Shown here piece by piece: positions 2,850 to 18,213 of a stretch of DNA of 64,000 bases. A program made the position numbers and the translations under genes. This DNA comes from Pelomicrobium sp. (GTDB taxonomy: Bacteria; Pseudomonadota; Gammaproteobacteria; Burkholderiales; UBA6910): contig DATIUV010000072.1 of NCBI GenBank assembly GCA_035466595.1, positions 5,816-69,815 of the forward strand. Direction: 5' to 3'. Positions within the stretch are counted from its first letter, which is position 1. Every line of letters starts with the position of its first letter. The notes under the pieces were generated by a model, which was not told where the DNA came from, ran no database searches, and was given only the letters and a program-made list of their open reading frames with translations.

Positions 2850-2963
2850 GTCCCAATCTCCCCTTTCAGTTGCGAAGCAAATAAGTCACGGGCGCCGGCG
2901 TCCCCGGCAACACCGCTTTGTCCCCCCGTCCCCGCGCCGGCATCCCGCAGCGCGCGGTTCCCG

Positions 2964-3383
2964 TCAGGCCGTCTCCGCCAGGGCCTGCCGCAGCGACTCC
3001 AGCGTGAGACCCCAGCGCTCCAGCACCTGGTGCAGGAAGGCCAGCTCGGCCTCGTGGAACCGGCCGTCGGCGTCGCAGACGTTGAGCAGGAGCCCGCAAA
3101 CCCGCACCCGCAGCCGGGGGTCGGTGACCTCGTCCAGGACGCGCCCGATGCGCTGCGGATCCAGCAGGCGAATGCGCTCGGCGCCGCTCCCCTCGGCGAG
3201 AAGGTCCTGGCAGTACTGGTGAACGACCTCGAGGAATTCGGCGCGCGTGAGGCCGAGGATGGCGTAGGCGTCCAGGTCGTCGAGGACCTGCAGCTCGCGG
3301 TGGTCCAGGCGGGCGTCGGTGACGATCGCCATGGCGACGACGCGGGCCAGCGCGCGGGGACTGTTGGTCGGATACGGTCTCAT
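2964..3383 (-). CDS. TerB-like (tellurite-resistance TerB / DjlA N-terminal domain family) protein
   Basis: 139 aa. The DGRFHEAELAFLHQV pattern and helical composition resemble the TerB fold. It is the first gene after the riboswitch. Confidence 0.6.
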   Translation of the reverse strand: MRPYPTNSPRALARVVAMAIVTDARLDHRELQVLDDLDAYAILGLTRAEFLEVVHQYCQDLLAEGSGAERIRLLDPQRIGRVLDEVTDPRLRVRVCGLLLNVCDADGRFHEAELAFLHQVLERWGLTLESLRQALAETA

Positions 3384-3504
3384 GGTGCTCCCTTGTCAGG
3401 CGGCACCACGAAGGCGGGGGTGCCGGTCCGCGCAGCCCGCGCCAGGAATCCTCAGGAGGATGGGGTCTTTCGGCGGCGGGATCGCGCGGAGCGGCCCCAG
3501 AAAG

Positions 3505-3625
3505 CGAAAAGACCCTTGCCATCGCTGGCAAAGGTCTCGCTTGCAACGCCTGGCGTTGCCAACCGGACCGGGGCTCGACGCCCGTATTGACGATCCGGCT
3601 GCTGGAAGCTACTCCCCTTTGGCCA
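3505..3625 (-). promoter_or_regulatory. yybP-ykoY (Mn2+) riboswitch with terminator expression platform
   Basis: The minus strand reads CCAAAGGGGAGTAGCTTCC...GGTTGGCAACGCCAGGCGTTGCAAGCGAGACCTTTGCCAGCGATGGCAAGGGTCTTTTCGCTTTC. This contains both conserved cores (AAAGGGGAGUAGC and GCAAGNGAGACCUUUGCC). The hairpin GACCTTTGCCA/TGGCAAGGGTC is followed by a U-rich tract. Confidence 0.8.
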
Positions 3626-3750
3626 TCGCGTCCCGTTGGGGGGCGACAGCGGAGTGCGGGTTACCGACAAGTAGACCGGCCGCCGGCCAAAAGTTCCCGG
3701 CCGGAAAAAGAAAACCCCGAATCAATGGGTTGCAGCAGACCGCCGGGCGC

Positions 3751-4713
3751 TCAGCGGATCAGGCCGGCGGCCATGATCAGCGGCAGGCTGACCCAGAAAG
3801 CCAGCGTGCTCCAGCCGATCAGCAGCGCCGCCGCCTCGTGGTCGAGGCGGAAGCGGTCGGCCAGCAGCAGCGCCGTCATCATGGTCGGGGTCGTGCCTTC
3901 CACCACCGCAGCGAACTGCGGCTCTTCGAGCGGGCGGAACAGCAGCCACGCGGCCGCCCAGACCAGCAATGGCGTCACCAGCAGCTTGACGCCCGCGGCC
4001 GCGAGGATCTCGCGCCGGGGGCGCAGCGCGCGCCATGGCACCGTGAGGCCGAGCACGAACAGGATCACGGGAATCGTCGCCTGGCCGATGAAGTAGGTGG
4101 CGCGCACCAGCGGCTCGTACACGAGCCCGGATTGCTGCGCGGCCACGCCCAGCACGAACGCCCAGATCGGCGGCATCGTCACCATGACGCGGAACACCGA
4201 CGGCTGGTCGGCCGCGTCGCGGTGCGCGCCGAGCCGCGTGCAGATCCACACGCCGACGCTCCAGACCAGTGGCATCGTCATCAGCATGTCGTTGAACACG
4301 GCGTAGCGGATGGCGTCGGGACCGTAGAAGAACTGCAGCACCGGAACGCCGATGTTGAAGGTGTTGCCGAACATCCCGCCCACCATGAGGATCGCGCGCG
4401 TGCCGTCGGCGAGATTGCGCCCCAGCGGGGAGCGGTACAGCAGCCAGTACAGCACCACGCCCGAAAGCAGCGAGCCGATGCCCACCAGCAGCGGCACGCT
4501 CAGCAGCGCGGCGTCGATCGGGGTCGTCGCCGAGACCGCGAAGACGATCGCCGGATAGAAGACGTAAAGCACCAGCCGGTTCAGCTGGCTGCGCAGCACC
4601 GCCAGCGGCGCGTCGCGGAAGATGAGCGGCCACACGCCGCCGGCGGCGACCAGCAGCGCCAGCGGCAGCATGACCTGGACCATCAGGCCGATCAGCTGCG
4701 CGGGGTAGTTCAT
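3751..4713 (-). CDS. AEC (auxin efflux carrier) family transporter
   Basis: 320-aa protein with about 10 predicted TM segments and the two-lobe hydrophobic architecture typical of AEC/MleP-like permeases. Confidence 0.75.
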   Translation of the reverse strand: MNYPAQLIGLMVQVMLPLALLVAAGGVWPLIFRDAPLAVLRSQLNRLVLYVFYPAIVFAVSATTPIDAALLSVPLLVGIGSLLSGVVLYWLLYRSPLGRNLADGTRAILMVGGMFGNTFNIGVPVLQFFYGPDAIRYAVFNDMLMTMPLVWSVGVWICTRLGAHRDAADQPSVFRVMVTMPPIWAFVLGVAAQQSGLVYEPLVRATYFIGQATIPVILFVLGLTVPWRALRPRREILAAAGVKLLVTPLLVWAAAWLLFRPLEEPQFAAVVEGTTPTMMTALLLADRFRLDHEAAALLIGWSTLAFWVSLPLIMAAGLIR

Positions 4714-4782
4714 GGCGGGCCGCTGCCCGAGGAAGGGGGCGGAACGTCGGTCATGGGAGGGCGGACGGGCAGCGGGTTACTG

Positions 4783-4972
4783 GCGATGGGTGATAGGGGA
4801 ACGGGAAATCGGGTGATCGACGATGGGTGGTTGGGGACTCGGGCAGACCGAGGCGAAGCGCCGTTCAGCTACTGCTCATCAGGATCGCTCATCACCAATT
4901 GCTCATCACCGATCGCTCATCACCGATCGCTCATCACTCATCACCCATTGCCCATCACGGATCGCCCGTCAC
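4783..4972. repeat. Degenerate 11-14 nt tandem repeat array (unit about TCGCTCATCACCGA, about 8 copies at 4873-4972) with an inverted partner arm (4783-4835)
   Basis: Read directly from the sequence: tgctcatcagga / tcgctcatcaccaat / tgctcatcaccga / tcgctcatcaccga / tcgctcatcac / tcatcacccat / tgcccatcacgga / tcgcccgtcaccgc. The left arm (gcgatgggtgata, cgggtgatcga, cgatgggtgg) is the reverse complement of the same motif. Confidence 0.8.
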
Positions 4973-5946
4973 CGCTTCTTCGCGTCCGGGTTGACCAGGT
5001 TGGGCGGATTGCCGACCGTGAGCGCCGCGACCAGGTTGTCAGCCGCCTTCTTCGCCATGTTGTAGCGGGTGGTACGCGTCGAGCTCGCGATATGCGGCGC
5101 CAGCACCACGTTCCGGAGTTCGAGAAAACCGGGATGCAGCTTGGGCTCGCCTTCATAGACGTCGAGCCCGGCGGCGGCGATGGTGCCGTCCTTCAGCGCC
5201 GCCACCAGCGCGGCATCGTCCACCACCCCGCCGCGCGCGGCGTTGATGAGAATCGCCGAAGGCTTCATGCGCTTGAGTTCCGCAGCGCCGATCAGGTGAT
5301 GGGTTTCCGCCGAGTAGGGGCAATGCAGCGTGACGAAGTCCGACTGCTCCAGCAGCTCCTCCTTGGTGACCAGCGTGGCGTTGCAGCGGCTCTCGATCTC
5401 CGGCGCCACGCGCTTGCGGTTCCAGTAGAGGACCTTCATGTCGAAGCCGGCGGCGCGGCGCGCCACCGCCTGGCCGATGCGGCCCATGCCGACGATGCCG
5501 AGCGTGGCGCCGTGGACGTCGGCGCCCAGCAGCTGCTTCAGCTCCCAGCGCTTCCACTCGCCGTGGCGCAGATAGGCCTCGGCCTCGGTCAGGCGCCGGG
5601 CGGCGCCGAGGATGAGCGCCCAAGTGAAGTCGGCGGTGGCGTCGTCCAGCACGCCCGGCGTGTTGGTGACGAGGATGCCGCGCTTCGTGCACTCGGCCAC
5701 GTCGATGTTGTTGTAGCCCACCGCGATGTTGCACACCGCCTTCAGCTTCGGCGCATGGTCCAGCAGCGCGGCGTCCACTTTGTCGACGATGGACGTCATG
5801 ACGCCTTCCTTGTCGGCCAGCCGCTCGGCCAGCTCCTGCGCGGACCAGGTCTCGTCGGCCTGGTTGGCGGTGACGCCGAAGCGGGATTCGAGGCTCACGA
5901 TGACCTCGTCGAAGATTTCGCGGGTGACCAGGATCTTGGTTCTCAT
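4969..5946 (-). CDS. D-isomer-specific 2-hydroxyacid dehydrogenase (glyoxylate/hydroxypyruvate reductase B-like)
   Basis: 325 aa with the GxGxxG motif (GIVGMGRIGQAV) and the catalytic region LINAARGGVVD...APHIASST. Confidence 0.85.
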   Translation of the reverse strand: MRTKILVTREIFDEVIVSLESRFGVTANQADETWSAQELAERLADKEGVMTSIVDKVDAALLDHAPKLKAVCNIAVGYNNIDVAECTKRGILVTNTPGVLDDATADFTWALILGAARRLTEAEAYLRHGEWKRWELKQLLGADVHGATLGIVGMGRIGQAVARRAAGFDMKVLYWNRKRVAPEIESRCNATLVTKEELLEQSDFVTLHCPYSAETHHLIGAAELKRMKPSAILINAARGGVVDDAALVAALKDGTIAAAGLDVYEGEPKLHPGFLELRNVVLAPHIASSTRTTRYNMAKKAADNLVAALTVGNPPNLVNPDAKKR

Positions 5947-6051
5947 GCTCGGCAGGTCCGGGAGTTGGCGTTAACGCGGGATGGTGCGGCCGGGGCGGAG
6001 AAGTTTAGCACGGCCCCTGCCGGCAGCCGGCTTGTTGGTCCCTGCGCCTTC

Positions 6052-6068
6052 ATATACGCTTGGTATAT
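6052..6068. promoter_or_regulatory. 17-bp palindromic operator candidate, copy 1 (ATATACGCTTGGTATAT)
   Basis: ATATAC-N5-GTATAT inverted repeat 31 nt upstream of the panB-like start. It is one of three near-identical copies in the window. Confidence 0.6.
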
Positions 6069-6098
6069 CAGCTATCGCACAGAGCCAGGGAGGCCGTC

Positions 6099-6968
6099 GT
6101 GCCGGAGGAAAAGCGCGCCAAGCGCACCATCACCGAGATCCGCGACTCGAAAAAGACCGGCGAGAAGATGGTGTACATGTCTGTGCCGGACTACACGTCG
6201 GCGCGCTGGGCGGAGATGGCGGGCGTCGACGTGGCGGTGGTGGGCGACAGCCTGGCGATGGTGGCCCACGGCCACCCAAGCACCATCCCCGCGACCATGG
6301 ACATGATGGTGATGCACGCCCAGGCGGTGCGGCGCGGCGCGCCGAACACGTTCGTGCTGGGCTGCATGCCCTACCAGAGCTACAACACCGTCGACCGGGC
6401 GCTCGTCAACGCGACCCGTTTCATGCAGGAGGCGGCCTGCGACGCGGTCAAGCCGCAGGGCGGCAAGAGCCAGGCGCACATCCTCAGGGCGCTGGTGGAC
6501 GCCGGCATCCCGACGGCCTCGCATATCGGCCTGACGCCGCACACCATCGCCATGTTCGGCGGCTTCAAGATCCAGGGCCGCACCGCGGACGCGGCGATGA
6601 GAATCCTCGAGGACGCATTCGCCATCCAGGACGCCGGCTGCTTCATGCTCGAGTTCGAGGCCGTGCCGGCGAAGATCGCGAAAATCATCTCCGAGCAGCT
6701 CGAGATTCCCACCATCGGCATCGGCGCCGGCGTCGGCACCGACGGCCAGATCCTGCTCTCGTACGACCTGCTCGGCGTGTTCACCGACTTCAAGCCCAAG
6801 TTCACCAAGCGCTACAGCAACCTGACGGAGGTCGCGGTGAAGGGCATCCGCCAGTACGTCGACGAGGTGAAGACCGGAAAATTCCCCGACGACGACCACA
6901 GCTACGGCGTCGACGACGCCGAGTACGAGAGGTTTCTCGGCCTGGTCGAGCGCCGCAGGCAGCTCTGA
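6099..6968 (+). CDS. 3-methyl-2-oxobutanoate hydroxymethyltransferase family protein (PanB-like paralog)
   Basis: The PanB signature is present throughout (VGDSLAMV...HIGLTPH...IGIGAG). The start was moved to the GTG at 6099, preceded by AGGGAGG. The reported ORF start at 6060 is a TTG with no ribosome-binding site. Confidence 0.8.
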   Translation: MPEEKRAKRTITEIRDSKKTGEKMVYMSVPDYTSARWAEMAGVDVAVVGDSLAMVAHGHPSTIPATMDMMVMHAQAVRRGAPNTFVLGCMPYQSYNTVDRALVNATRFMQEAACDAVKPQGGKSQAHILRALVDAGIPTASHIGLTPHTIAMFGGFKIQGRTADAAMRILEDAFAIQDAGCFMLEFEAVPAKIAKIISEQLEIPTIGIGAGVGTDGQILLSYDLLGVFTDFKPKFTKRYSNLTEVAVKGIRQYVDEVKTGKFPDDDHSYGVDDAEYERFLGLVERRRQL

Positions 6969-6969
6969 G

Positions 6970-7701
6970 ATGCCGCGGGCAAGTTCCGCCGCCGCGGCGC
7001 GCAAGCGCACCGCTCCGCCCCGCCGGCGCTCGACGGCAGCGCGGCGCGACCGGCCGCCGCCGCTGAGCCTGACCGAGCGTGCCTACCGCGACCTCGAGGA
7101 ACTGATCGTCACCCTCAAGCTCGCGCCCGGCACTGCGGTGTCCGAGAGCGCGCTGAGCGAGCGCCTCGGCATCGGTCGCACGCCGATCCGCGAAGCGCTG
7201 CAACGGCTTGCGCGCGAGCGTCTGGTAACCATCCTGCCCCGCCGCGGCATCATCGTCTCCGAGGTGAACATCAAGAGCCAGCTGCGGCTGCTGGAGCTGC
7301 GCCGCGAAGTGGAGCGCCTGGTCGCGCGCTGCGCGGCGCGGCGCGCCAGCGAAGCGGAGCGCGCCCGCTTCGCCGAGCTCGCCGCCCTGTTCGAGAAGAG
7401 CGCGCGGGAAAACGACGACACCACCTTCCTGCGCATCGACCGCGAGTTCAACGAGCTGTGCGTGGCCGCCGCCCGCAACGAGTTCGCCAGCGTGGCGATG
7501 GGGCAGATGCAGTCGCTGTCGCGCCGGTTCTGGTACTTGCACTACAAGCAGGCGGCGGACCTGCCCGAGACGGCGCACCTGCACGCCGACATGGCGCGCG
7601 CCATCGCCGAGGGCAACCCGGAGGCGGCCGCCGCCGCGACCGATCGCCTGCTGGACAAGATCGAGTCGTTCACGCGCGCCACGGTGACGACGGATTTCTG
7701 A
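6970..7701 (+). CDS. GntR family transcriptional regulator (FadR subfamily, FCD C-terminal domain)
   Basis: Winged-HTH motif LSERLGIGRTPIREALQRLARERLV followed by a helical FCD-like domain. The N-terminal approximately 35 aa are Arg/Ala-rich, so the true start may lie further downstream. Confidence 0.85.
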   Translation: MPRASSAAAARKRTAPPRRRSTAARRDRPPPLSLTERAYRDLEELIVTLKLAPGTAVSESALSERLGIGRTPIREALQRLARERLVTILPRRGIIVSEVNIKSQLRLLELRREVERLVARCAARRASEAERARFAELAALFEKSARENDDTTFLRIDREFNELCVAAARNEFASVAMGQMQSLSRRFWYLHYKQAADLPETAHLHADMARAIAEGNPEAAAAATDRLLDKIESFTRATVTTDF

Positions 7702-7781
7702 GCCGCGATGCTGCATTGCCGCAGCCGCGCCACGCGCCGCGCTTGAAAAAACCGGGCCGGCAGGGCACACTTTGGGACTAG

Positions 7782-7798
7782 ATATACACCTGATATAT
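7782..7798. promoter_or_regulatory. 17-bp palindromic operator candidate, copy 2 (ATATACACCTGATATAT)
   Basis: Same motif as 6052-6068, located 59 nt upstream of the hydroxylase gene start at 7857. Confidence 0.6.
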
Positions 7799-7856
7799 TA
7801 GTGTCGCCGAATCCGTCAGGAGCGGCGCCGCAACCACCCGGCAGGAGGCAGCAGCC

Positions 7857-8678
7857 ATGACTACCCAAGACATGCTCGTCGAGCGCCACGCCATGGGCGA
7901 ACGCCAGCGCAAGTTCCGCCAGCAGTACATGTCGGAAGTCAGCCCGCTCTACAATGGTCCCTTCCACATCGGCGTCATCTACGTGGTGGGCGCCGCCGCC
8001 ATCTGGTGGTGCCTGACGCGGCTGGAGAACGCGACCTGGGAGTGGCTGCTGGTGATACCGGTGTTCGTGTTCTCGAACCTGTTCGAGTGGTGGATCCACA
8101 AGAACGTGATGCACCGGCTGAAGGACAAGTTCGCCCTGCGCGCGATCTACGACCGCCACACGCGCCAGCATCACGTCTATTTCTCGGACAACGAGATGAC
8201 GGTCGATTCCACGCGCGAGTGGCGCATCATCTTCTTTCCCTGGCGCGCGCTGTTCACGTTCATGGCGCTCGGCACGCCATTCGCGTTCCTGCTCGGCTGG
8301 CTGGTGAACCCGAACGCCGGCTACATCCTGATGATCACCATCGTCGGCCAATACCTGATCTACGAGACCTTCCACTACTGCTGCCACGTCCACGACAACT
8401 GGTTCGTGCGCAACATGCCGTTCGTCAACACCATCCGCCGCCACCACACCGTGCACCACAATGTCGGCGTGATGATGGACCTCAACATGAACCTCACTTT
8501 CCCCATCGCCGACTGGCTGATGGGCACCAGCGACCTCGACCGCGGCCTGCTGGGGCACATCTTCAACGGTTACAGCATGAAGCACCAGAAGCCCGAAGTC
8601 CGCGCCAAGATGCAGAAGTACATGAACGACGAGCAGGCAGCGGCCGCGGTCATCGACAGCGTTCGCCAGCCGGCCTGA
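7857..8678 (+). CDS. Fatty acid hydroxylase / sterol desaturase superfamily membrane di-iron enzyme
   Basis: 273 aa with hydrophobic segments and histidine boxes HKNVMHR, HTRQHH and HHTVHH. The ATG is preceded by AGGAGG. Confidence 0.8.
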   Translation: MTTQDMLVERHAMGERQRKFRQQYMSEVSPLYNGPFHIGVIYVVGAAAIWWCLTRLENATWEWLLVIPVFVFSNLFEWWIHKNVMHRLKDKFALRAIYDRHTRQHHVYFSDNEMTVDSTREWRIIFFPWRALFTFMALGTPFAFLLGWLVNPNAGYILMITIVGQYLIYETFHYCCHVHDNWFVRNMPFVNTIRRHHTVHHNVGVMMDLNMNLTFPIADWLMGTSDLDRGLLGHIFNGYSMKHQKPEVRAKMQKYMNDEQAAAAVIDSVRQPA

Positions 8679-8737
8679 GGTTCCCGCGCCGGCGACGGGC
8701 AACAAGACATCGAACCCAACCCAGAGGAGGAGGCAAC

Positions 8738-9817
8738 ATGAAGCAGGGACGCAGACAGGCACTCAAGGCGCTGGGCGCCACCGGCTTGCTGGCCGCCGTG
8801 GCCAGCGCGCGCGACGCGGCGGCTCAGCAGGGCGGCCCGAGCTACAGCTTCAAGATGGCCACCGCCTGGTCCGGCGGCCCGCTCATGGACATCGGCGCCA
8901 AGGCATTCGCCGAGAATCTCGAGTTTCTCTCGGGCGGCCGCATGAAGGTGCAGGTTTTCCCCGGCGGCGCGCTCGGCAACGCGCTCAAGGTTTCCGAAAC
9001 GGTCAAGAACGGCATCGCCGAGATGGGCCACACCTGGATGGGCTACGACTGGGGCGCCGACCCCACCACGGTGGCGTTCGGCGGCTACGCCGGCAGCTTC
9101 AATTCCGAGTACATGCTGCACTGGCTGTATCAGGCCGGCGGCGTCGAGATGCAGCGCCAGTTCCGCGAGGAGAAATTCGGCATCGTTTCGATGCCGCTGT
9201 TCATCCGCACCGCGGAGGTGTTCCTGCACTCGCGCAAGCCGGTCCGCACGCTCGACGACCTCAAGGGCCTGAAGATGCGCACCGCCGGTGCCTGGATCGA
9301 GATGTCGAAGGAGCTCGGCGCCGCGCCGGTGACGACCCCCGGTGGCGAGATTTACCCCGCGCTGGAGCGCGGCGTCATCGACGCGACCGAGTGGGGCACG
9401 CTGTGGGAGAACATCACGCCCGGCTTCTACAAGGTCGCCAAGTACCTGATCATCCCGGGGGTGCATCAGCCCACGGCGCCGTTCGAGCTCTGCATCAACA
9501 AGGGAGTCTGGGACAAGCTGTCGACCAACGACCGTCGCCTGATCGAGATGACCGCCCGGCTGGTGACCTACGACTGTTTCACGCGCATCGGCCAGGAGGA
9601 TGCCAAGGCGCTGGACTTCTACAAGAAAGCGGGCAACGAGATCATCGAGCTCGACCCCGAGGTCCAGTACCGCGGCCGCGAGATCGGCCTCAACTGGGGC
9701 GACAAGACCGCCGACGCGAATCCCTGGTTTGCCAAGGTGCACAAGAGCCAGCGCGAGTTCGAGGCGCTCTGGAAGGACGCGCCGCGCTACCGTAACGTCA
9801 AGGTGCGGCCGGCCTGA
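8738..9817 (+). CDS. TRAP transporter substrate-binding protein (DctP-like, COG4663 type) with Tat-like signal
   Basis: Begins MKQGRRQALKALGATGLLAAVASA after GAGGAGGAGG. The start was trimmed from the long ORF 8006..9817. It is a paralog of the protein at 18278..19429. Confidence 0.85.
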   Translation: MKQGRRQALKALGATGLLAAVASARDAAAQQGGPSYSFKMATAWSGGPLMDIGAKAFAENLEFLSGGRMKVQVFPGGALGNALKVSETVKNGIAEMGHTWMGYDWGADPTTVAFGGYAGSFNSEYMLHWLYQAGGVEMQRQFREEKFGIVSMPLFIRTAEVFLHSRKPVRTLDDLKGLKMRTAGAWIEMSKELGAAPVTTPGGEIYPALERGVIDATEWGTLWENITPGFYKVAKYLIIPGVHQPTAPFELCINKGVWDKLSTNDRRLIEMTARLVTYDCFTRIGQEDAKALDFYKKAGNEIIELDPEVQYRGREIGLNWGDKTADANPWFAKVHKSQREFEALWKDAPRYRNVKVRPA

Positions 9818-9834
9818 CGGCCGCGATGCGGCAA

Positions 9835-9875
9835 GCCGGCGGGACCGCACGGACGCGGCGTCCCGCCGGCTTTTT
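9835..9875 (+). terminator. Intra-operon hairpin plus T5 (partial terminator/attenuator) between the TRAP binding protein and permease genes
   Basis: GCCGGCGGGAC-N14-GTCCCGCCGGC followed by TTTTT. Confidence 0.6.
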
Positions 9876-9937
9876 CGTTCGCGCCCGCGCGCACGGCGCC
9901 GGGGCGCCGCATCCGACGAACCCGAATCCGACTGCCG

Positions 9938-10459
9938 ATGCTGTCCTGGCTGCTCCGCTTTCTCGACCGGGTGACCGGTACCTCCGGTGCCGTGGTCGCC
10001 TGGCTGGTGATCCCGCTGATCGCCGCCAGCTGCTACGAGGTGTTCTCGCGCTACGTGCTCAACGAGCCCACGCTGTGGGCGTTCGAGGTGGGCTACATGG
10101 TGATGGGCACCCACTTCCTGGTCGGCATGGCCTATACCCTGCGCGAGAACGAGCACGTGCGCGTGGACCTCTTGTACGCCCGCCTCTCGCCCAGGCTGCA
10201 GGCGCTGGTGGACACCTTCACCTACGTCTGCCTGCTGTTGCCCCTCACGCTGTGGCTTTCGGTGAGCCTGTGGGACAAGGTGCTCAAGGCCTACGAGTCG
10301 CAGGAGCGCTCGGGCATGTCGGCGTTCAATCCGCTGATCTGGCCGTACCGCGCGGTGTTCTTCACCGCATTCGTGCTGCTCAGCCTGCAGGCGATCGCCC
10401 AGCTGATCCGCTGCTACCAGACACTGACCGGCCGGGGCCGTGACGAAAGCGACGCATGA
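9938..10459 (+). CDS. TRAP transporter small permease (DctQ-like)
   Basis: 173 aa with 4 predicted TM segments. It overlaps the downstream dctM-like start by 4 nt. Confidence 0.85.
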   Translation: MLSWLLRFLDRVTGTSGAVVAWLVIPLIAASCYEVFSRYVLNEPTLWAFEVGYMVMGTHFLVGMAYTLRENEHVRVDLLYARLSPRLQALVDTFTYVCLLLPLTLWLSVSLWDKVLKAYESQERSGMSAFNPLIWPYRAVFFTAFVLLSLQAIAQLIRCYQTLTGRGRDESDA

Positions 10460-11778
10460 GCGAATACCTGCCGCTGTTCATGCTGCTGGCGATGTTCGTC
10501 CTGATCTTCCTGGGCGTGCACGTCGCGTTCGCGCTGATGGGCACCGCGCTCATGTTCGGCTTCGCCATCTTCCAGGGCGCGGTCATCTTCCAGTTCATGG
10601 AGAAGATCGAGGACATCGCGTCCAACTTCGTGCTGGCGGCGGTGCCGCTGTTCGTGTTCATGGGCACCATGCTGGAGCGCTCCGGCATCGCCGAGCAGCT
10701 GTTCGAGGCGGTGCATCTGTGGACGCGGCGGCTACCGGGCGGCCTCGCGCTGGGCACCGTGATCATGTGCGTGATCTTCGCCGCGTCCACCGGCGTGATC
10801 GGCGCGACCGAGACCGTGGTCGGACTGCTGGCGATCCCGGCCATGATGAAGTACGGCTACAACAAGCCCCTCATCTGCGGCACGATCTGCGCCGGCGGCT
10901 CGCTGGGCACGATCATCCCGCCGTCGGTCGTGGTCGTGGTACTGGGACCGGTCGCCAACGTATCGGTGGGCGACCTGATGGTGGGCATGATCTTCCCGGG
11001 CATGATCATGGCCGGCCTGTACCTGCTCTATATTCTCGTGCTGTGCCTGATCCGGCCCGAGGCCGGGCCGCGCATTCCGCCCAGCTCGGACGACCCGCCG
11101 CTCGTGCAGCGGCTCCTGACCACGGCCCACGCGCTGGTGCCGCCGCTGTTCATGATTTTCGCCGTGCTGGGCTCCATCATGCTCGGCTGGGCGGCGCCCA
11201 CCGAGGCCGCCGCCCTGGGCGCCTTTGGCGCCATCCTGCTCACCATCTTCTACCGCCGGTTCAGCCTGGCGACGCTGAAGGATTCCGCCCTGAAGACGCT
11301 GCGCATCACGTCCATGATCATGGCGATCCTGCTGGGCGGCACCATCTTCACCGGCGTGTTCTTCGCCGGCGGCGGCATCAATCTGACCAACCAGCTGGTG
11401 TCGCACATGGACCTGGGACCGTGGGGACTGCTGTTCCTGCTGCTCGGGATCTGCTTCCTGGCGGGCTTCGTGCTGGACTGGATCTCGATCCTGCTCATCT
11501 TCATCCCGATCTTCATGCCGCTGGTGAACGGTGCCGGCTTCGACCCCGTGTGGTTCTGCATCCTGTTCCTCATCATCATCCAGACCAGCTACCTGACGCC
11601 GCCGCTGGCGCCGGCAATTTTCTACCTGCGCGGCATCGCACCGCCGTCGATCACGCTGATCGACATGTACAAGGGCGTCGTTCCGTTCATCCTGCTGCAG
11701 GTCGCGACGCTGGCGGTGGTGATGACGTTTCCGCAAACTGTTCTCTGGCTGCCGGACAAGCTGCTCGGCTTCCGGTAG
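10456..11778 (+). CDS. TRAP transporter large permease (DctM-like)
   Basis: 440-aa polytopic protein that aligns by eye with the second DctM at 16249..17595. Confidence 0.9.
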   Translation: MSEYLPLFMLLAMFVLIFLGVHVAFALMGTALMFGFAIFQGAVIFQFMEKIEDIASNFVLAAVPLFVFMGTMLERSGIAEQLFEAVHLWTRRLPGGLALGTVIMCVIFAASTGVIGATETVVGLLAIPAMMKYGYNKPLICGTICAGGSLGTIIPPSVVVVVLGPVANVSVGDLMVGMIFPGMIMAGLYLLYILVLCLIRPEAGPRIPPSSDDPPLVQRLLTTAHALVPPLFMIFAVLGSIMLGWAAPTEAAALGAFGAILLTIFYRRFSLATLKDSALKTLRITSMIMAILLGGTIFTGVFFAGGGINLTNQLVSHMDLGPWGLLFLLLGICFLAGFVLDWISILLIFIPIFMPLVNGAGFDPVWFCILFLIIIQTSYLTPPLAPAIFYLRGIAPPSITLIDMYKGVVPFILLQVATLAVVMTFPQTVLWLPDKLLGFR

Positions 11779-11802
11779 CCGTGTCGCCAAGGAGGCAAAC
11801 CC

Positions 11803-12708
11803 ATGACACCCGAACAAGTCCTCGCCGTCGAGCCGAAGATCCTGACCCGGGAGCAGCGCGAGTTCTACTTCGCCAACGGCTATCTGGTGCTGGAGCGCAT
11901 CATTCCGCAGGAGTGGCTCGCGAAGCTGCGCGCCGCCACCGAGGAACTGGTCGAGCGCAGCCGCGCGATCACGAAATCGGACGCGATCTACGACCTCGAG
12001 CCGGACCACCGACCCGACGCCCCGCGCCTGCGCCGGGTCTCCAATCCCGTCGAGCAGCACCCGGCGTTCTGGGAGTACTGCTCGCGCTCGCTGCTGGGCG
12101 ACGTCGTCGCCGACCTGGTGGGCCCGGACGTCAAGTTCCACCACTCCAAGCTCAACTTCAAGTGGGCCAAGGGCGGCGAGGAAGTGAAGTGGCATTACGA
12201 CATCGGCTTCTGGCCCCACACCAACTACTCGCCGCTCACGGTGGGCACCTACCTCTACGACTGCGGCATGGACCAGGGCCCGCTCGGCGTGCTGCCGGGC
12301 AGCCACGAGATCGAGCCGATGTTCTCGCAATACGACGACAAGGGCGAGTGGATCGGCTGCCTCAAGCCGGCCGACGCGGCGAAGCTCGACCTGTCGAAGG
12401 CCGTGTTCCTGCCGGGCCCCGCGGGCTCGATCACGATTCACAACTGCCGCACGCTGCACTACTCGGCCAAGAACACGTCCGATCTCGGCCGGCCGCTGCT
12501 GCTGTTCGCCTACTCGTCGGCCGACGCGTTTCCCTACACGGTGAACCCGATCCGCTCGAAGTACGATCAGGCGATCATCCGCGGCCAGCCCGCGCGCTGG
12601 GCGCACCACGATCCGCGCCCGTGCCTGATGCCGCCCGACTGGTCGGGCGGCTACACCTCGATCTTCGCCCTGCAGCAGGAGGAGGCGAAGAAGGCGGCGG
12701 CGATGTGA
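11803..12708 (+). CDS. Phytanoyl-CoA dioxygenase (PhyH) family Fe(II)/2-oxoglutarate dioxygenase
   Basis: 301 aa. Begins REFYFANGYLVLE, has the HxD motif in VKWHYDIGFW, and a distal His in ITIHNCRTLHYS. Confidence 0.8.
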   Translation: MTPEQVLAVEPKILTREQREFYFANGYLVLERIIPQEWLAKLRAATEELVERSRAITKSDAIYDLEPDHRPDAPRLRRVSNPVEQHPAFWEYCSRSLLGDVVADLVGPDVKFHHSKLNFKWAKGGEEVKWHYDIGFWPHTNYSPLTVGTYLYDCGMDQGPLGVLPGSHEIEPMFSQYDDKGEWIGCLKPADAAKLDLSKAVFLPGPAGSITIHNCRTLHYSAKNTSDLGRPLLLFAYSSADAFPYTVNPIRSKYDQAIIRGQPARWAHHDPRPCLMPPDWSGGYTSIFALQQEEAKKAAAM

Positions 12709-12760
12709 CGGCGCTGCGTTCCATTGCCTGAGGACGGGAGCCGTTTTTCGTGAGGGGCGC

Positions 12761-14092
12761 GTGAACGCCATCGATTTGCGCGAGGGCCTGCGCGTCGAGG
12801 CCGACGTCGTCGTGGCGGGCGGCGGCGCGGCCGGCGTCGCGGCGGCGGTGACCGCGGCGCGCCAGGGCCTCCGGGTGGCGCTGGTCGAGCGCTACGGCTT
12901 CTGCGGCGGCGGCGCCGTCGCGGGCATGTCGGGAACGATCTGCGGCCTGTACCTGGCGCGCGACGGAGACGCGGGCCCGGAGCAGGTCGTGTTCGGCTTC
13001 GCCGACGAATTCCTCCGCCTGCTTGCGGCCCGCGGCGGCATCACGCCGGCGGTGCGCTACGGCAAGACCTGGACCCACGTCCATGACCCGCTGGTGTGGC
13101 GCGAGGCCGCCGATCACCTGTTGCGGGAAGCGGGCGTCCACGTGTTCCTGCACAGCACGGTCACCGATGTCCTGCTCGAGGGCGACCGGGCGCAGGGCCT
13201 GATCGCCTACAACAAGCAGGGCAAGCTCGAAATTCGCGCGAAGGTGACCATCGACGCCAGCGGCGACGCCGATCTCGTCGCCATGGCCGGGTGGCCGTCC
13301 TTCGTCGGCGATGGCGGTCGGGTGCAGAATCCAACCATGATCTTCCGCCTGGGCGGCGTCGACACCGCGCGCTTCCTGCAGGCCTACGGAGCCGACACCA
13401 TCATGCCGGAGCAGGTTTCCGAGCTGCTGCGGCGGCATCACGGCCAGGGCTACACGCTGCCGCGTGCGAAGATCTGGCTGTTCACCACGCCGCGACCCGG
13501 CGAACTGCTATGCAACTGCACCCGCGTCATTGGCCCCGACGGCCGCGAGCTGAACACGCTCTACGCCGCCGATTTCACCGACGCCGAAATCGAGGGCCGG
13601 CGCCAGGTCCGCGAGTACGCGCGTTTCTTCCGCGATCACCTGGCGGGCTGCGAGGCGAGCTTCGTCAACGACACGGGCGTGCAGGTCGGCGTGCGCCAGA
13701 CGCGGCAAGCGCGCGGCACGGCGCTGCTTGCCAACGAGGACGTCGTCGCGGCGCGCAAGTTCGCCGACGGAATCGCCCGCTCGCCGTGGCCGATCGAGCT
13801 GCACGCCGGCCAACGACCCCGCGTCGAGTGGATCCTGGATGACTTCTACGAGGTGCCCTACGGCTGTTTCGTGCCGCAGACCGGCGACGGTCTGCTGCTG
13901 GCGGGGCGCTGCCTCTCGGCACAGCATGAGGCCGTGGCCTCCGCCCGGGTCACGGCGCAGTGCTTCAGCTACGGCCACGCGATGGGCCACGCGGCGGCCA
14001 TGTGCATCGCGGACCGCTGCGAGCCGCGGCAGCTCTCCGGGACGGACGTGCGCGCCCGGGTCAGCCGCGACGGCGCGCGCCTCGATCGGTAA
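12761..14092 (+). CDS. FAD-dependent oxidoreductase (FAD_oxidored/GIDA-like family)
   Basis: N-terminal dinucleotide fold DVVVAGGGAAGVAAAVTAARQGLRVALVE. 443 aa. Confidence 0.8.
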   Translation: MNAIDLREGLRVEADVVVAGGGAAGVAAAVTAARQGLRVALVERYGFCGGGAVAGMSGTICGLYLARDGDAGPEQVVFGFADEFLRLLAARGGITPAVRYGKTWTHVHDPLVWREAADHLLREAGVHVFLHSTVTDVLLEGDRAQGLIAYNKQGKLEIRAKVTIDASGDADLVAMAGWPSFVGDGGRVQNPTMIFRLGGVDTARFLQAYGADTIMPEQVSELLRRHHGQGYTLPRAKIWLFTTPRPGELLCNCTRVIGPDGRELNTLYAADFTDAEIEGRRQVREYARFFRDHLAGCEASFVNDTGVQVGVRQTRQARGTALLANEDVVAARKFADGIARSPWPIELHAGQRPRVEWILDDFYEVPYGCFVPQTGDGLLLAGRCLSAQHEAVASARVTAQCFSYGHAMGHAAAMCIADRCEPRQLSGTDVRARVSRDGARLDR

Positions 14093-14204
14093 GCTCCCGG
14101 CATCCCGTATCGCTTCGCCCCCGCTGTTCGGCACCACTCGCCGTCTGCGCCCGGCCGCCGGCCGGGTTTGACCCAGATCAAAGACAGCGGCCTCCAGATC
14201 GGTA

Positions 14205-14221
14205 ATATATCAGGCGTATAT
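14205..14221. promoter_or_regulatory. 17-bp palindromic operator candidate, copy 3 (ATATATCAGGCGTATAT, the reverse complement of the ATATACGCCTGATATAT form)
   Basis: Third copy of the motif, 24 nt upstream of the ATG at 14245. Confidence 0.6.
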
Positions 14222-14244
14222 CAAAGCTCTCGACGGAGGCCCGA

Positions 14245-14577
14245 ATGACGGTCAACGCTTTCCTGGTTCTGGCATTGCTCGGCGTGCTGGCGAGCGCGTT
14301 CTGGTGGCTGCTGCTGCGGCAGGCGGCGCGGGCGACGACCGCGCGGCCGCCAACGCTGTTCGCTCGCATGCGCGAGCACCTGGGGATCGACCTGGCGAGA
14401 ACGCCGGTGTCCGGCGCTGCGCCAGCGGTTGCCGAGGCGACCGAGCGCTGCGGCCGCTGCACGCATCCCGCGGAGTGCCGTGAGTGGCTGGCGACCGACA
14501 AGGGCAGTCGGGCGCCGGGGTTCTGCGTCAACGCCACGCTCCTGGCCGAACTGCAGGAACAGACGCGGCGGAACTAG
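14245..14577 (+). CDS. Small membrane-anchored Cys-rich protein of unknown function (DUF6455-like by recollection)
   Basis: 110 aa with an N-terminal TM helix and the motif CGRCTHPAECREWL...FC. It is directly preceded by the operator copy and a GGAGG site. Confidence 0.55.
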   Translation: MTVNAFLVLALLGVLASAFWWLLLRQAARATTARPPTLFARMREHLGIDLARTPVSGAAPAVAEATERCGRCTHPAECREWLATDKGSRAPGFCVNATLLAELQEQTRRN

Positions 14578-14888: not shown

Positions 14889-16259
14889 TTACGCCGACCT
14901 GACCGATTTTTCCAGCCAGCGCGCCGTGCGCAGCAGGCGGGCGTCGTCCATGCGCTGCCCGACCAGCTGCACACCCAGCGGCATACCGTTTTCGCCCTGC
15001 AATAGCGGCAGCGTCAACGCGGGCGTGCCGCACAGCGTCCACAGGGTGCAATAGATCGGATCGCCGGTGCCTTCCTCGAACCTGGGTGCCGTGCCAAGGG
15101 TCGCCGGCGTCAGGATGGCGTGGTACTCGCCGAAGATCTCGTCTAGCACGCGGTTCAGCAAGGGAATGCGGTCCACGCAGTTGAGGTAATCGACGGCACG
15201 CACCTCACGGCCGCGCTCGATCTGCCCGCGCAGCGACGCCGACAACTTGTCCCGACCCTCGTCGTATTCCTGGGCGAAGCTGCGCGCCAGATCCGCCTCC
15301 ATGATGGTCTTGTGCCACGCCACGGCCTGCAGAAACGTCGCCGGGAGTTCAACCTCGGTGACGCTGCCGCCGAGGTGCTCCACCAGCTCGGCGAAGGCCT
15401 CCTGGGTATCCGGCGATGTCCGGTCCCAGGCGGGCGCCTTGATGAAGGCGAACCGCGGCTCGAGCGGCACCTCCTGGCGGGAGGTCTCGAGCAAAGGGGG
15501 CCGCGCCGTCAGCTGCGTCGCGGGATCGTCCTCGTCGTACCCGGTGAGGGTCTCCGCGATGAGCGCGATATCCTCGATCGAGCGCCCCATCACGCCGACC
15601 TGGTCCAGCGGTCGCGACTGGCGCAGCACGCCGGAGCGGGGAATCATGCCGAAGGTGGGCTTGTAGCCGTAGACGCCGCAATAGGCGGCCGGGCGGATCA
15701 CCGAGCCATTCGTCTGCGTGCCGACCGCCAGAGGCGCCATGTAAGAAGCCACGGCAGCGGCCGAGCCGCTCGAAGACCCGCCGGGTGTATGCGCCGGATT
15801 GTGCGGATTGCGTGTCTTTCCCGGCGCGTAGGTCGCCAGCTCGGTGGTGACCGTTTTGCCGAGGACGATCGCGCCATCGGCGCGCAGCCGCCGGATGAGC
15901 GCCGCGTCCTGGCGTGGAATGCGGCCCTCGTGCAGGACGGTACCGTCGCCGGTCGGCATGCCGCGGACGTCGATGATGTCCTTGATCGCCACGGGCACGC
16001 CGTGAAGCCGCCCGAGGGGCCGGCCCTGCCGCCGGTGTTCGTCGAGCGCCCGCGCCTGCTCGAGGACGTGCTCGGGGCCGAGGAAGGCCCAGGCCTCCAC
16101 CGAGGCGTCTACGTCGCGGATGCGCTCGAGGCAGTCCGTCACCGCCTGCTCAGTCGACACGAGCCCGGTCGCGATGGCGTCGCGCAACGCCACCGCGCCC
16201 AACGCGGCGCGCGTCGCCGGCGCGTCCACGGGCCTTACCGGTTCGTGCTCAGTTGCCAT
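14889..16259 (-). CDS. Amidase-signature family amidase (GatA-like)
   Basis: 456 aa with the amidase signature GGSSSGSAAAVA. Confidence 0.9.
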   Translation of the reverse strand: MATEHEPVRPVDAPATRAALGAVALRDAIATGLVSTEQAVTDCLERIRDVDASVEAWAFLGPEHVLEQARALDEHRRQGRPLGRLHGVPVAIKDIIDVRGMPTGDGTVLHEGRIPRQDAALIRRLRADGAIVLGKTVTTELATYAPGKTRNPHNPAHTPGGSSSGSAAAVASYMAPLAVGTQTNGSVIRPAAYCGVYGYKPTFGMIPRSGVLRQSRPLDQVGVMGRSIEDIALIAETLTGYDEDDPATQLTARPPLLETSRQEVPLEPRFAFIKAPAWDRTSPDTQEAFAELVEHLGGSVTEVELPATFLQAVAWHKTIMEADLARSFAQEYDEGRDKLSASLRGQIERGREVRAVDYLNCVDRIPLLNRVLDEIFGEYHAILTPATLGTAPRFEEGTGDPIYCTLWTLCGTPALTLPLLQGENGMPLGVQLVGQRMDDARLLRTARWLEKSVRSA

Positions 16260-17595
16260 AGAGCTGGTTGGGCAGCCAGGCCACCAGTTCCGGGAAGATG
16301 TAGACCAGGATCATCGACACGAACACCATGCTCAGGAACGGGAAGCAGCCCTTGAAGATGGTCCACAACTGCACGTGCGGCGGTGCGATGCCCTTCAGAT
16401 AGTAGGCCGACATCGCCATCGGTGGTGTCAGGAACGACGTCTGCAGGTTCAGCGCCACCAGGATGCCGAAGAACATCGGGTCGATGTTGAAGTGCGGCAG
16501 CAACGGCAGGAAGATCGGCACGAAGATGATGATGATCTCGCTCCACTCCAGCGGCCAACCGAGAATGAAGATGATGATTTGTGCCAGGATCAGGAACGTG
16601 ATCGGCGTCAGGTCCATGCCCAGCACCCAGTCCTTGATCAGACCCTCGCCGCCGAGATAGGAGAACACCGACGAAAACGTCCACGACCCGACGAACAGCC
16701 AGCACACCATCGCCGAGGTGCGCGCCGTCAGGAACACCGCCTCCTTCAGCCGCTCCCAGGTCAGCGCTCGGTACGCGGCGGCCAGCACGATGCCGCCGAA
16801 CGCCCCGACCGAGGCGGCTTCCGTCGGCGTCGCCAGGCCGAACAGGATCGAGCCCAGCACCGCCAGGATCAGCACCGCCAGCGGTATGAACGCTTTCAGC
16901 AGCAGAAGCAGCACCTGGCCCCAGGGAACGTTCGATTGCTCCTTCGGCAGCTTCGGCGCCAGTTGCGGGCGCAGGATGCCGACGCCGATCACGTAGAGCA
17001 TGTACAGACCGGCAAGCAGGAAGCCCGGAAAAAGCGCCGCCGCGTAGAGCTTCACCACGGAAACCGCGGAGGTCGCGCCGTAGACGATGAGCATGATCGA
17101 AGGCGGGATCAGGATGCCCAGCGTGCCGCCGGCGCAGATCACGCCGGCCGAGAGCTTCTGATCGTAGCCCGCCTTCAGCATCGCCGGGAACGCCAGCAGG
17201 CCCATCAGCGTGACGACGGCGCCGACGATGCCGGTCGCGGTGGCGAACATCGCGCAGGTGGCAAGCGCCGCCACCGCCATGGCCGCCGGCACGCCGCGGA
17301 ACGCCAGCTGCAGGCTCAAGAACAGCCGGTCCAGGATGTTGGCCCGTTCGACGATGTAGCCCATGAACAGAAACAAGGGCACCGCCACCAGCACGTCGTT
17401 GTTCATGACGCTGAACGTGTTCTGCGACAGCAGGTAGAACACGCGGTTGTCGAAGAACGTCTGGTCCGGCACGTAATAGGCGTAATAGCCGAAGCCGACG
17501 CCCATCGCCATCAGCGTGAAGGCGATCGGGAAGCCCAGCAGAATGATGAAAATGAACAGGCCCAGCATCAGCAGGGCGACTTCGGGGTTGGTCAC
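16249..17595 (-). CDS. TRAP transporter large permease (DctM-like), system 2
   Basis: 448-aa polytopic protein, paralog of 10456..11778. Confidence 0.9.
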   Translation of the reverse strand: MTNPEVALLMLGLFIFIILLGFPIAFTLMAMGVGFGYYAYYVPDQTFFDNRVFYLLSQNTFSVMNNDVLVAVPLFLFMGYIVERANILDRLFLSLQLAFRGVPAAMAVAALATCAMFATATGIVGAVVTLMGLLAFPAMLKAGYDQKLSAGVICAGGTLGILIPPSIMLIVYGATSAVSVVKLYAAALFPGFLLAGLYMLYVIGVGILRPQLAPKLPKEQSNVPWGQVLLLLLKAFIPLAVLILAVLGSILFGLATPTEAASVGAFGGIVLAAAYRALTWERLKEAVFLTARTSAMVCWLFVGSWTFSSVFSYLGGEGLIKDWVLGMDLTPITFLILAQIIIFILGWPLEWSEIIIIFVPIFLPLLPHFNIDPMFFGILVALNLQTSFLTPPMAMSAYYLKGIAPPHVQLWTIFKGCFPFLSMVFVSMILVYIFPELVAWLPNQLYGN

Positions 17596-18188
17596 TTGGC
17601 GTTCTCCCCGGCCATCTTCGCATGGTCCTGGTGCTGGGCCAGCACCGCCGTTTCCATCTCCTCGACGTCATGCAGCCGCGGCGGCCATTTGCCCTCCCGC
17701 AGGGCGATGAAGCAGCGGATCACCTCCGCCACCCCCTGGATCGCCAGCAGCAGGCCGGCCAGCGGAATCAGCGCCTTCAACTGGAAGATCGGCACGCCCA
17801 CCGGGCTGTTGACGCTGACCTCCTGGATGCGGATCGAATCCCAGGCGTAGCCGCCGCCCGCGATGATGAGCGAGAGCACGCCGGGGAAGAAGAAAATGAT
17901 GTAGAGCGTCAGCTCGACGCCGGCCTGCACGCGGATCGGCCACAGGCGGTAGAACACGTCGCCACGGACATGGGCGTTCCTTGACAGGGCATAGGCGCCG
18001 GACATCAGGAACAGGCCGCCGTAAAGGATGTAGCTCATGTCGAATGCCCAGCTGGTCGGGTCCCGCAGCGCATAGCGCACGAATACCTCGTAGACCGTGC
18101 CGAAAGTCAGGATGAGAATGCACCACGCAAAGGCATGGCCGACCGACTTGGAGAGCTGGTCGATGGCCTGCAACAGTCGATTGAGCAT
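17592..18188 (-). CDS. TRAP transporter small permease (DctQ-like), system 2
   Basis: 198 aa with 4 TM segments. There is a 4-nt overlap with dctM. Confidence 0.85.
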   Translation of the reverse strand: MLNRLLQAIDQLSKSVGHAFAWCILILTFGTVYEVFVRYALRDPTSWAFDMSYILYGGLFLMSGAYALSRNAHVRGDVFYRLWPIRVQAGVELTLYIIFFFPGVLSLIIAGGGYAWDSIRIQEVSVNSPVGVPIFQLKALIPLAGLLLAIQGVAEVIRCFIALREGKWPPRLHDVEEMETAVLAQHQDHAKMAGENAK

Positions 18189-18213
18189 CGCGGCACCCGG
18201 AGTGGGTTCGGAT

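Follow-up and report, generated by a model that had tools for sequence, protein, structure and literature searches.

We analyzed a stretch of 64,000 nucleotides from Pelomicrobium sp. (contig DATIUV010000072.1, positions 5,816 to 69,815), here called the window, in which three copies of an AT-rich 17-bp palindrome, ATATAC-N5-RTATAT, accompany a GntR-type regulator and a cluster of genes for enzymes and a transporter. The regulator, a GntR protein with an FCD domain and a presumed repressor (6970..7701, plus strand), is preceded by a panB-like gene of the ketopantoate hydroxymethyltransferase family (6099..6968, plus strand), which is the first gene of a panB-gntR operon and has its stop codon 1 nt ahead of the ATG of gntR. 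Divergent from panB is a gene for a D-2-hydroxyacid dehydrogenase resembling glyoxylate/hydroxypyruvate reductases (4969..5946, minus strand). Downstream of gntR, an operon on the plus strand begins with a membrane di-iron enzyme of the FA_hydroxylase/sterol-desaturase type (7857..8678; histidine boxes HKNVMH, HTRQHH and HHTVHH), and continues with the tripartite ATP-independent periplasmic (TRAP) transporter genes dctP (8738-9817), dctQ (9938-10459) and dctM (10456-11778), a PhyH-family 2-oxoglutarate dioxygenase (11803-12708) and, as its last gene, a PF12831 FAD-dependent oxidoreductase (12761-14092); these genes are separated by gaps of 24-120 nt or overlap. It is followed by the gene for a small DUF6455 protein (14245..14577, plus strand) with an N-terminal hydrophobic segment and four cysteines. 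Domain searches against Pfam and NCBIfam gave the same assignments as a preliminary description of this DNA (Pantoate_transf/panB, GntR with FCD, FA_hydroxylase, DctP/Q/M, PhyH, FAD_oxidored PF12831 and DUF6455), the panB-like protein scoring 286 bits against TIGR00222, where the cut-off is 207.55.

The palindrome, ATATACNNNNNRTATAT, has exact matches at 6052-6068 (on both strands, a perfect palindrome), 7782-7798 (plus strand) and 14205-14221 (minus strand), where the preliminary description had placed them, and an exact search of the window found no further copy. That three such copies would be very unlikely by chance was also borne out: the G+C content of the window is 61-72%, no match appeared in 100 dinucleotide-preserving shuffles, and a scan allowing up to two mismatches still returned the same three places only, against 0.08 expected. 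A 21-column matrix trained on the orthologous loci described below likewise found three sites only in the entire window at 12 bits or more. The end of the palindrome is 30 nt from the start codon of the panB-like gene (GTG 6099), 58 nt from that of the hydroxylase gene (ATG 7857) and 23 nt from that of the DUF6455 gene (ATG 14245), and the first site also lies upstream of the divergent dehydrogenase, 105 nt from its start at 5946.

A motif conserved with the regulator

The preliminary description had claimed that the GntR protein controls the genes behind the three palindromes, and had named phylogenetic footprinting as one way to check this. An alignment of 15 homologues led us to 79 loci, none longer than 20 kb, in Beta- and Alphaproteobacteria (species-representative genomes), whose orthologues of the regulator are 54-81% identical. 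The same motif was found at the same promoter positions among these loci. With the untrained pattern and up to two mismatches, the 79 loci (1.22 Mb) gave 73 matches, compared with 3-10 in 50-bp block shuffles, and the matches cluster about 0.9 kb upstream of gntR, before the panB-like gene, and directly downstream of gntR, before the hydroxylase gene, as they do in the window. The 21-column matrix, at 16 bits or more, gave 354 positions in the loci and 6 in their reversed sequence, a comparison with some circularity, the matrix having been trained on those same loci; the untrained pattern is the cleaner test. There are 194 distinct matrix sites, 162 of them intergenic though about 80% of the DNA is coding, and at least one is present in 75 of the 79 loci (mean 2.4). 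The kilobase before gntR, or the kilobase from its 5' end, holds 82 of 191 sites, and a site stands upstream of panB or gntR in 40 of the 79 loci.

All predicted proteins of the loci were clustered, and a family was counted as a target where its gene lay no more than 350 bp downstream of a site. The hydroxylase-like gene is the most constant member of the regulon, with an upstream site in 55 of 60 cases; the corresponding figures are 25 of 38 for the panB-like gene, 24 of 55 for gntR and 13 of 27 for dctP, the 24 gntR genes with a site being those without a panB neighbour. Smaller recurrent targets are PhyH, a second PhyH family, DUF6166, an iron-dependent alcohol dehydrogenase, MFS and ABC transporters, an alpha/beta hydrolase, a protein resembling phosphoenolpyruvate mutase and isocitrate lyase, and a protein with a homocysteine S-methyltransferase domain. 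Corrinoid-dependent methyltransferase systems also occur among the targets, in the form of a CmuA-like fusion of URO-D and B12-binding domains, a corrinoid protein and a URO-D methyltransferase. Gene order varies widely between loci, and the motif therefore follows the genes rather than a syntenic block. No second regulator gene is conserved in the cluster. What stands of the GntR-linked regulon is the conservation of the motif together with the regulator and at the same gene families; the small Cys-rich gene, DUF6455, which had been counted in, is not a conserved target, as neither it nor the dehydrogenase has a counterpart in the 79 loci.

The matrix was also applied to the complete plasmid pPBL-H3_B2-1 of Hydrogenophaga sp. 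PBL-H3 (319,548 bp), which has an orthologue of 61% identity as well as an operon whose last genes are DUF6166 and one annotated 'sterol desaturase family'. A single site on the plasmid reaches 16 bits and exceeds the maximum of the reversed sequence (15.7 bits): with 20.5 bits, it is located 139 bp 5' of the gntR orthologue, and a weaker one (13.2 bits) precedes the first gene of the hydroxylase operon by 85 bp. The genome-wide matrix scan that had been suggested earlier is covered here to the extent of these two sequences, with three sites in the 64-kb window and one strong site in the 319.5-kb plasmid. In locus L203 (the Hydrogenophaga plasmid NZ_CP044976.1, 152-174 kb of the record; loci are cited by our own numbers) a block of dmeF, TMEM165/GDT1, FTR1 and hypothetical genes occurs twice, flanking the gntR/hydroxylase cluster, and several insertion sequence (IS) elements are present, and the cluster therefore sits in a rearranged, mobile region.

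A tandem double-box operator and its probable repressor

Conservation in the aligned matches reaches past the 17 bp, with T at -1 and C-A at +18/+19. The true unit measures 21 bp and is composed of two tandem 10-bp boxes with the consensus TGATATATCA (T-n-R-T-A-T-A-Y-n-A) whose starts are 11 bp apart; symmetrising both halves leads to this same box consensus. Neighbouring boxes at the 11-bp pitch, which is about one helical turn, amount to 102 pairs against 2 in the control, and there are essentially no other spacings. Longer runs, of at least three boxes, were considered after overlapping matrix matches spaced by 13 bp had been seen in Cupriavidus loci, but a single triple run was found at threshold, so that the pair was retained as the unit. 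Within the window, operator 1 (6050..6070; left box TCATATACGC, spacer T, right box TGGTATATCA; 24.8 bits) occupies the intergenic region between the divergent dehydrogenase and panB-like genes, 28 nt upstream of the latter, and an identical site is found in the same place in the close relative L200. Operator 2 (7780..7800; left box AGATATACAC, spacer C, right box TGATATATTA; 27.3 bits) lies 5' of the hydroxylase operon, and operator 3 (14203..14223; left box TAATATATCA, spacer G, right box GCGTATATCA; 27.4 bits) lies 21 nt upstream of the DUF6455 gene.

By its sequence, each box is probably a degenerate palindrome of the GTATAC type used by the FadR subfamily, with GT and AC 2 nt apart. The box frame is GT-N2-AC, and the key positions of the symmetrised boxes are G/C in 26% and mostly A/T instead. 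The preliminary description had related the palindrome to a GT-Nx-AC core, which was a misparsing: the 17-bp palindrome as written has the order AC-N5-GT, and this order is seen because ATATAC and GTATAT are the inner halves of two different boxes.

The regulator has the domain composition of its subfamily, with a GntR winged helix-turn-helix (PF00392, residues 34-96, E = 1.5e-17, 63.5 bits, cut-off 27) and an FCD effector domain (PF07729, residues 107-229, E = 9e-21, 75 bits, cut-off 24.3). Its homologues number in the thousands, mostly from Burkholderiales metagenomes, and its closest relatives of known structure are remote (best E = 1.7e-17; Atu1419, over the DNA-binding domain only, E = 1.2e-8). 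Paralogues that adjoin the same type of operator share residues G69, R70, T71, P72, R74, E75 and A76 without exception. The first part of the reading frame (6970-7065) codes for an Arg/Ala-rich extension of about 30 residues without counterpart in many homologues, which have 213-217 residues; the true start codon could lie further downstream, and operon membership would be unaffected.

These paralogues came to light in a scan that started from the motif, in which the exact pattern ATATAY-N3-TGATATATCA was searched across metagenome contigs and returned 120 contigs, mostly AT-rich chance matches. Eight of the 18 contigs with at least 55% G+C have the start of a homologous gntR within about 150 bp of the motif, and three more such cases were found in AT-rich contigs. 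Among these eight, one is a true orthologue in a panB-gntR-hydroxylase arrangement, and most of the others are paralogues of about 40% identity adjoining hydroxyproline-catabolic genes. The double-box operator lies in divergent promoter regions in L089, L103, L128, L154, L171, L172 and L198, with a 4-hydroxyproline epimerase, a protein resembling dihydrodipicolinate synthase and an FAD dehydrogenase as neighbours; the epimerase of L089 scores above the NF010578 cut-off, and the L172 contig ends ahead of any regulator gene. In four further paralogue loci with the same operator type (L093, L173, L107 and L158) the neighbours, from translations read by eye, resemble dimethylglycine dehydrogenase, an MttB-family methyltransferase and a sodium:solute symporter, and these gene contents hint that the regulator clade may be generally tied to amine or methyl-group catabolism. 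All these motif-adjacent regulators share the recognition helix G-R-T-P-(I/V/L)-R-E-A. Since the same operator type stands beside paralogues, it belongs to a wider FCD-GntR clade and is not unique to this regulator. On sequence grounds this strengthens the link between the motif and the regulator family, and it also leaves room for possible cross-talk between paralogues.

The operators lie close to predicted promoters. Promoter prediction picks two of the three sites, and operator 2 overlaps a promoter-like TTGGGA-16-TATATT with a TG extension. In the aligned upstream regions of many betaproteobacterial hydroxylase genes, a TTGnnA-17-nAnAAT pair is seen by inspection 5-18 nt upstream of the operator; the corresponding pair in the window, TTGAAA (7743-7748) and CACACT (7766-7771), would put a predicted transcription start near 7778-7780 and operator 2 at about +2 to +23. 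In loci with divergent hydroxylase and panB genes, the operator follows TTGACA by 6 nt and its second box includes the -10 TAATAT. The left box of operator 3 contains TAATAT as well (14203-14208), with a start predicted near 14215. All these arrangements fit repression by occlusion, and none is a typical activator position. A minus-strand TCGAGA-18-TATATT at site 3, directed antisense into the FAD-oxidoreductase gene, was regarded as a by-product of the palindrome.

Taken together, the three palindromes are very probably operators of the FCD-type GntR repressor encoded at 6970-7701. An operator stands before the regulator's own transcription unit, panB-gntR, with predicted promoter overlap, as in an autoregulated repressor, and autoregulation is therefore implied. 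Without effector, the repressor would block RNA polymerase at the predicted -10 or transcription-start regions of the panB-like/gntR unit, of the hydroxylase-dctPQM-PhyH-FAD-oxidoreductase operon and of the promoter that now stands before DUF6455; the divergent dehydrogenase may be co-regulated through operator 1. Each 10-bp box would probably be bound by one dimer, so that each 21-bp operator would carry two dimers, or a tetramer, on the same side of the helix, as suggested by the dimer of the FCD regulator Atu1419, which binds a 10-bp palindrome. A small molecule binding to the FCD domain would release the repressor, and candidates are the transported organic acid, a pathway intermediate or possibly a one-carbon (C1) derivative of folate.

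Such a mechanism is itself ordinary, namely a GntR/FCD repressor with an AT-rich palindromic operator and an autoregulated local regulon; this system differs from known FCD repressors in its regulon content and in having a fixed tandem double box. Operators of the FadR subfamily (FadR, PdhR, LldR and others), with the consensus NyGTM-N0-1-KACNy (PMC4494728), are likewise A/T-rich palindromes for a winged helix-turn-helix dimer that typically overlap promoters and serve local catabolic regulons, whereas here the canonical G/C are mostly A/T and the functional unit is a fixed pair of boxes rather than a single palindrome. NanR of E. coli, of the same subfamily, recognizes tandem TGGTATAW repeats (PMC4494728), and thus also uses tandem GGTATA-type units with more than one dimer bound, but its units are direct repeats without internal dyad, whereas each box here is palindromic; the regulator scores 41 bits against the NCBIfam NanR model, compared with a cut-off of 260. 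The VanR-group FCD repressor Atu1419 of Agrobacterium fabrum (PDB 6z74) binds as a dimer to the 10-bp palindrome ATGTATACAT, which overlaps -10 boxes; it controls genes of folate-linked demethylation, with N5,N10-methylene-tetrahydrofolate as proposed effector, and its palindromes, in which G3 is essential, lie at distances of 109-190 bp and are joined by a tetramer that loops the DNA (PMC7797058). The regulon studied here also contains folate-C1 enzymes (the panB-like protein and, in relatives, a pterin methyltransferase and the methylenetetrahydrofolate reductase MTHFR), and it differs in that the boxes are adjacent at 11 bp and that A is commoner than G at the position matching G3 of Atu1419.

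HypR, a GntR/FadR-subfamily repressor of hydroxyproline catabolism in Sinorhizobium meliloti whose regulon has been reconstructed across Proteobacteria (PMC5343134), is assigned to the FadR-subfamily class with GT and AC 2 nt apart (PMC4494728). It resembles the present regulator in its GntR winged helix-turn-helix and FCD domains, in being usually autoregulated and in its core, GTATAC compared with RTATAY in our boxes, and the metagenomic paralogues adjoining 4-hydroxyproline epimerase carry the same double-box operator and a GRTP(I/V)REA helix. These hyp-flanked paralogues, called HypR-like from their gene neighbourhood rather than by comparison with the S. meliloti protein, are only 37-41% identical to the regulator, and neither the cluster of the window nor the 79 orthologous loci contain the hydroxyproline genes for epimerase, D-hydroxyproline dehydrogenase, deaminase and alpha-ketoglutarate semialdehyde dehydrogenase. 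On both accounts the regulator is not a HypR orthologue. A literature search on the box sequence TGATATATCA, the regulator, the gene combinations and DUF6166 found nothing relevant in the library searched.

Several points weigh against assigning the operators to this repressor. Besides the partial circularity of the matrix counts, the 11-bp spacing was measured with boxes taken from the same trained matrix, the binding of two dimers is inferred from box symmetry, the scan of the source genome spans 64 kb, and the assignment is built on co-occurrence and position. Neither DUF6455 nor the dehydrogenase is a conserved target. The operator type is shared with paralogues, and binding of a paralogue here may also fit the sequence. 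Finally, the box resembles an extended -10 element (TGnTATAAT), and part of its conservation could come from promoter function. The last two points lead to alternatives of their own. The palindromes might be operators of a different factor, a paralogous FCD-GntR protein (a HypR-like one, for example) or an unrelated regulator, with the adjacent GntR protein recognizing something else; paralogues of about 40% identity with an identical recognition-helix motif do sit beside the same operator type, and sequence does not reveal specificity between paralogues. We consider this quite improbable, as the motif travels with the orthologous group in 75 of 79 loci of two bacterial classes, stands before the regulator's own operon, has its best site on the plasmid directly upstream of the orthologue's gene, and is accompanied by no other conserved regulator gene.

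Even less credit is due to the idea that these AT-rich elements are mere core promoters (extended -10 or UP-like) of a GC-rich genome that serve no dedicated repressor. Boxes such as TGATATATT match the TGnTATAAT type of -10, and two sites were picked by promoter prediction. Nevertheless, the dyad-symmetric conservation covers 21 bp and takes in outer T/A and CA positions dispensable for a -10 hexamer, promoters do not feature paired boxes at a constant 11-bp pitch, many loci have a separate conserved -35/-10 pair upstream of the site by inspection, and in the scans of window and plasmid the element is restricted to the gene cluster. A dispersed repeat (REP- or MITE-like), which the preliminary description had named as the case that would overturn its claim, or a terminator hairpin would account for sequences that are palindromic and intergenic, and this explanation is effectively refuted. 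The window holds three copies only, all of them upstream of genes and with dissimilar flanks, and the position of the sites is conserved across distant genomes. No Rfam match was found in the window, no T-run follows the sites, and their hairpins are weak (-0.5 to -2 kcal/mol, z-scores -0.4 to -0.85) and no more stable than those of shuffled sequence, so that all tests for a REP-like repeat, an RNA element or a terminator hairpin were negative.

Operator 3 and its corrinoid-type relatives

The close relative L200, whose regulator is 89% identical, is collinear with window positions 725-14085 at 86% nucleotide identity, and this collinearity breaks exactly at the end of the FAD oxidoreductase. 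Past the break (window 14085-14245 compared with L200:17119-18994), L200 has a gene for an ILVD/EDD-family dehydratase, the operator AATATATCAGTTGCATATGAG, a corrinoid protein and a URO-D methyltransferase; L202 has further genes after these, for a pterin-binding methyltransferase, a RACo activator and MTHFR. Operator 3 is of the same sequence type as the operator before the corrinoid-protein gene in L200, L202 and L001, and a palindrome upstream of it, GTTTGAyCCAGATCAAA, is common to the window and L200. No corrinoid genes were found in the 64-kb window. The 120 motif-selected contigs contain no counterpart of DUF6455 or of the dehydrogenase, which is conserved only in L200, and the arrangement of operator 3 with DUF6455 was found only in near-identical metagenome contigs. 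From this synteny we infer that operator 3 would descend from the promoter of a corrinoid operon and now faces DUF6455 after gene loss or rearrangement. The preliminary description had joined all three transcription units into one pathway, a view without support for the small Cys-rich gene, absent as it is from the 79 loci and preceded by an operator of the corrinoid-operon type; membership of DUF6455 in the regulon is uncertain and genome-specific.

Upstream of operator 3 lies a box of the FNR/CRP-family type, TTGAC-CCAG-ATCAA (14168..14181), one mismatch from the consensus TTGAT-N4-ATCAA of FNR, FixK and Anr sites and the only match with up to one mismatch in the window. Its centre is 31 nt upstream of the centre of TAATAT, a class-II-like spacing. 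Such boxes number 43 in the loci, compared with 2 in reversed sequence; this count includes a few matches within hydroxylase coding sequence that are no true sites. They precede CmuA-like genes in 6 of 13 cases, corrinoid-protein genes in 2 of 4 and URO-D methyltransferase genes in 1 of 6, compared with 1 of 59 for the hydroxylase and 0 of 14 for PhyH; in the window and, before corrinoid-methyltransferase genes, in related loci, the box stands 24-55 bp upstream of the GntR operator (L002:10633, L009:8972 and 11694, L024:9495, L031:10770, L044:3657, L067:9000 and 13167, L200:18872). As a hypothesis only, this distribution suggests that the corrinoid branch of the regulon may be under additional low-oxygen control and the oxygenase branch not.

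These observations bear on whether operators 1 and 2 work while operator 3 is a relic of the lost corrinoid-methyltransferase operon, with no role for DUF6455. We regard this as the less likely but still a serious possibility. The break of synteny at 14085, the equivalent operators before corrinoid-protein genes in three relatives, the absence of corrinoid genes from the window and the restriction of DUF6455 to this genome among the loci all speak for a relic. On the other side, operator 3 scores as high as the others, the FNR-like box and the TAATAT -10 keep their spacing, so that the promoter looks intact and points at DUF6455, and the arrangement is retained in an independent metagenome contig.

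Regulon content and a possible pathway

If the repressor acts through these sites, the double-box operator allows a regulon of many Burkholderiales and Rhodospirillales from soil and fresh water to be defined by sequence, and would illustrate cleanly how an FCD regulator can use a fixed tandem pair of boxes. Organisms with the cluster that can be grown in culture include Cupriavidus necator A5-1, Azospirillum brasilense, Tistlia consotensis and Hydrogenophaga sp. PBL-H3, and an orthologue of the regulator is also encoded in complete sequences of Bradyrhizobium sp. ORS 111 (NZ_CP120701) and of Azospirillum chromids (NZ_CP012915). The regulon joins genes without an assigned pathway (the highly conserved PanB paralogue, the sterol-desaturase-like membrane enzyme, PhyH, the PF12831 flavoprotein, DUF6166 and TRAP, ABC or MFS transporters, with corrinoid systems in relatives), and the operator makes their substrate and pathway approachable by experiment. 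Folate-C1 enzymes recur among them, namely the PanB paralogue, the pterin methyltransferase, MTHFR and the protein with the homocysteine-methyltransferase domain, and together with the methyl-transfer systems they suggest demethylation of a methylated acid as the most attractive theme. By analogy with Atu1419, a folate-derived effector is conceivable.

A fuller scheme can be drawn, although we hold it to be rather unlikely in this form: an undescribed and widespread regulon for the catabolism of an organic acid that is methylated or contains an ether, in which the C1 group would be removed by either of two branches under the same GntR repressor, both feeding C1 units to tetrahydrofolate. The O2-dependent branch would consist of the FA-hydroxylase-like di-iron enzyme, the PhyH dioxygenase and the PF12831 flavoprotein. 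The O2-independent one would consist of the CmuA-like or corrinoid protein, the URO-D and pterin methyltransferases, RACo and MTHFR, and would also be under the FNR-type box. A dedicated PanB paralogue would use or release methylene-tetrahydrofolate, and the signal for the repressor might be a folate-C1 species and not the substrate.

The individual proteins give few hints of the substrate. The closest solved relatives of the TRAP binding protein bind lactate, pyruvate or keto acids (E = 1e-38 to 1e-29) and are too distant for a ligand to be named. Catabolism of pantoate, by PanB in reverse and a 2-hydroxyacid dehydrogenase, was considered and dropped, the dehydrogenase not being conserved in the regulon and the 4p9k/4pak group being remote (E = 1e-13); 4pak is presumably a pantoate-bound TRAP binding protein. 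The nearest known relatives of the PhyH protein are hydroxylases of ectoine and of amino acids, too remote for its function to be assigned, the PF12831 flavoprotein has one marginal halogenase match as its only structural relative, and the hydroxylase-like protein has no relative in the PDB.

Some further features were seen in and around the cluster. The panB-like protein is 80-90% identical in 33 related loci, and in several loci a second, more divergent panB-like gene (52-54% identical to that of the window) lies at most 10 kb from the cluster, often adjoining another TRAP system (L002:18008-18844, L005:1786-2640, L006:16208-17035, L017:18260-19087, L023:16917-17780, L027:7272-8120 and L031:18334-19161). 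The 120 nt that separate dctP from dctQ contain a short GC hairpin with a T-run behind it (CGGCGTCCCGCCG GCTTTTTCGT, 9856-9868), which could be a partial terminator that lowers expression of the membrane subunits relative to the binding protein. Beyond DUF6455, a convergent and apparently unrelated operon on the minus strand (14889-19429) codes for a second TRAP system (dctP with a twin-arginine (Tat) signal, dctQ and dctM) and an amidase, and carries no copy of the operator.

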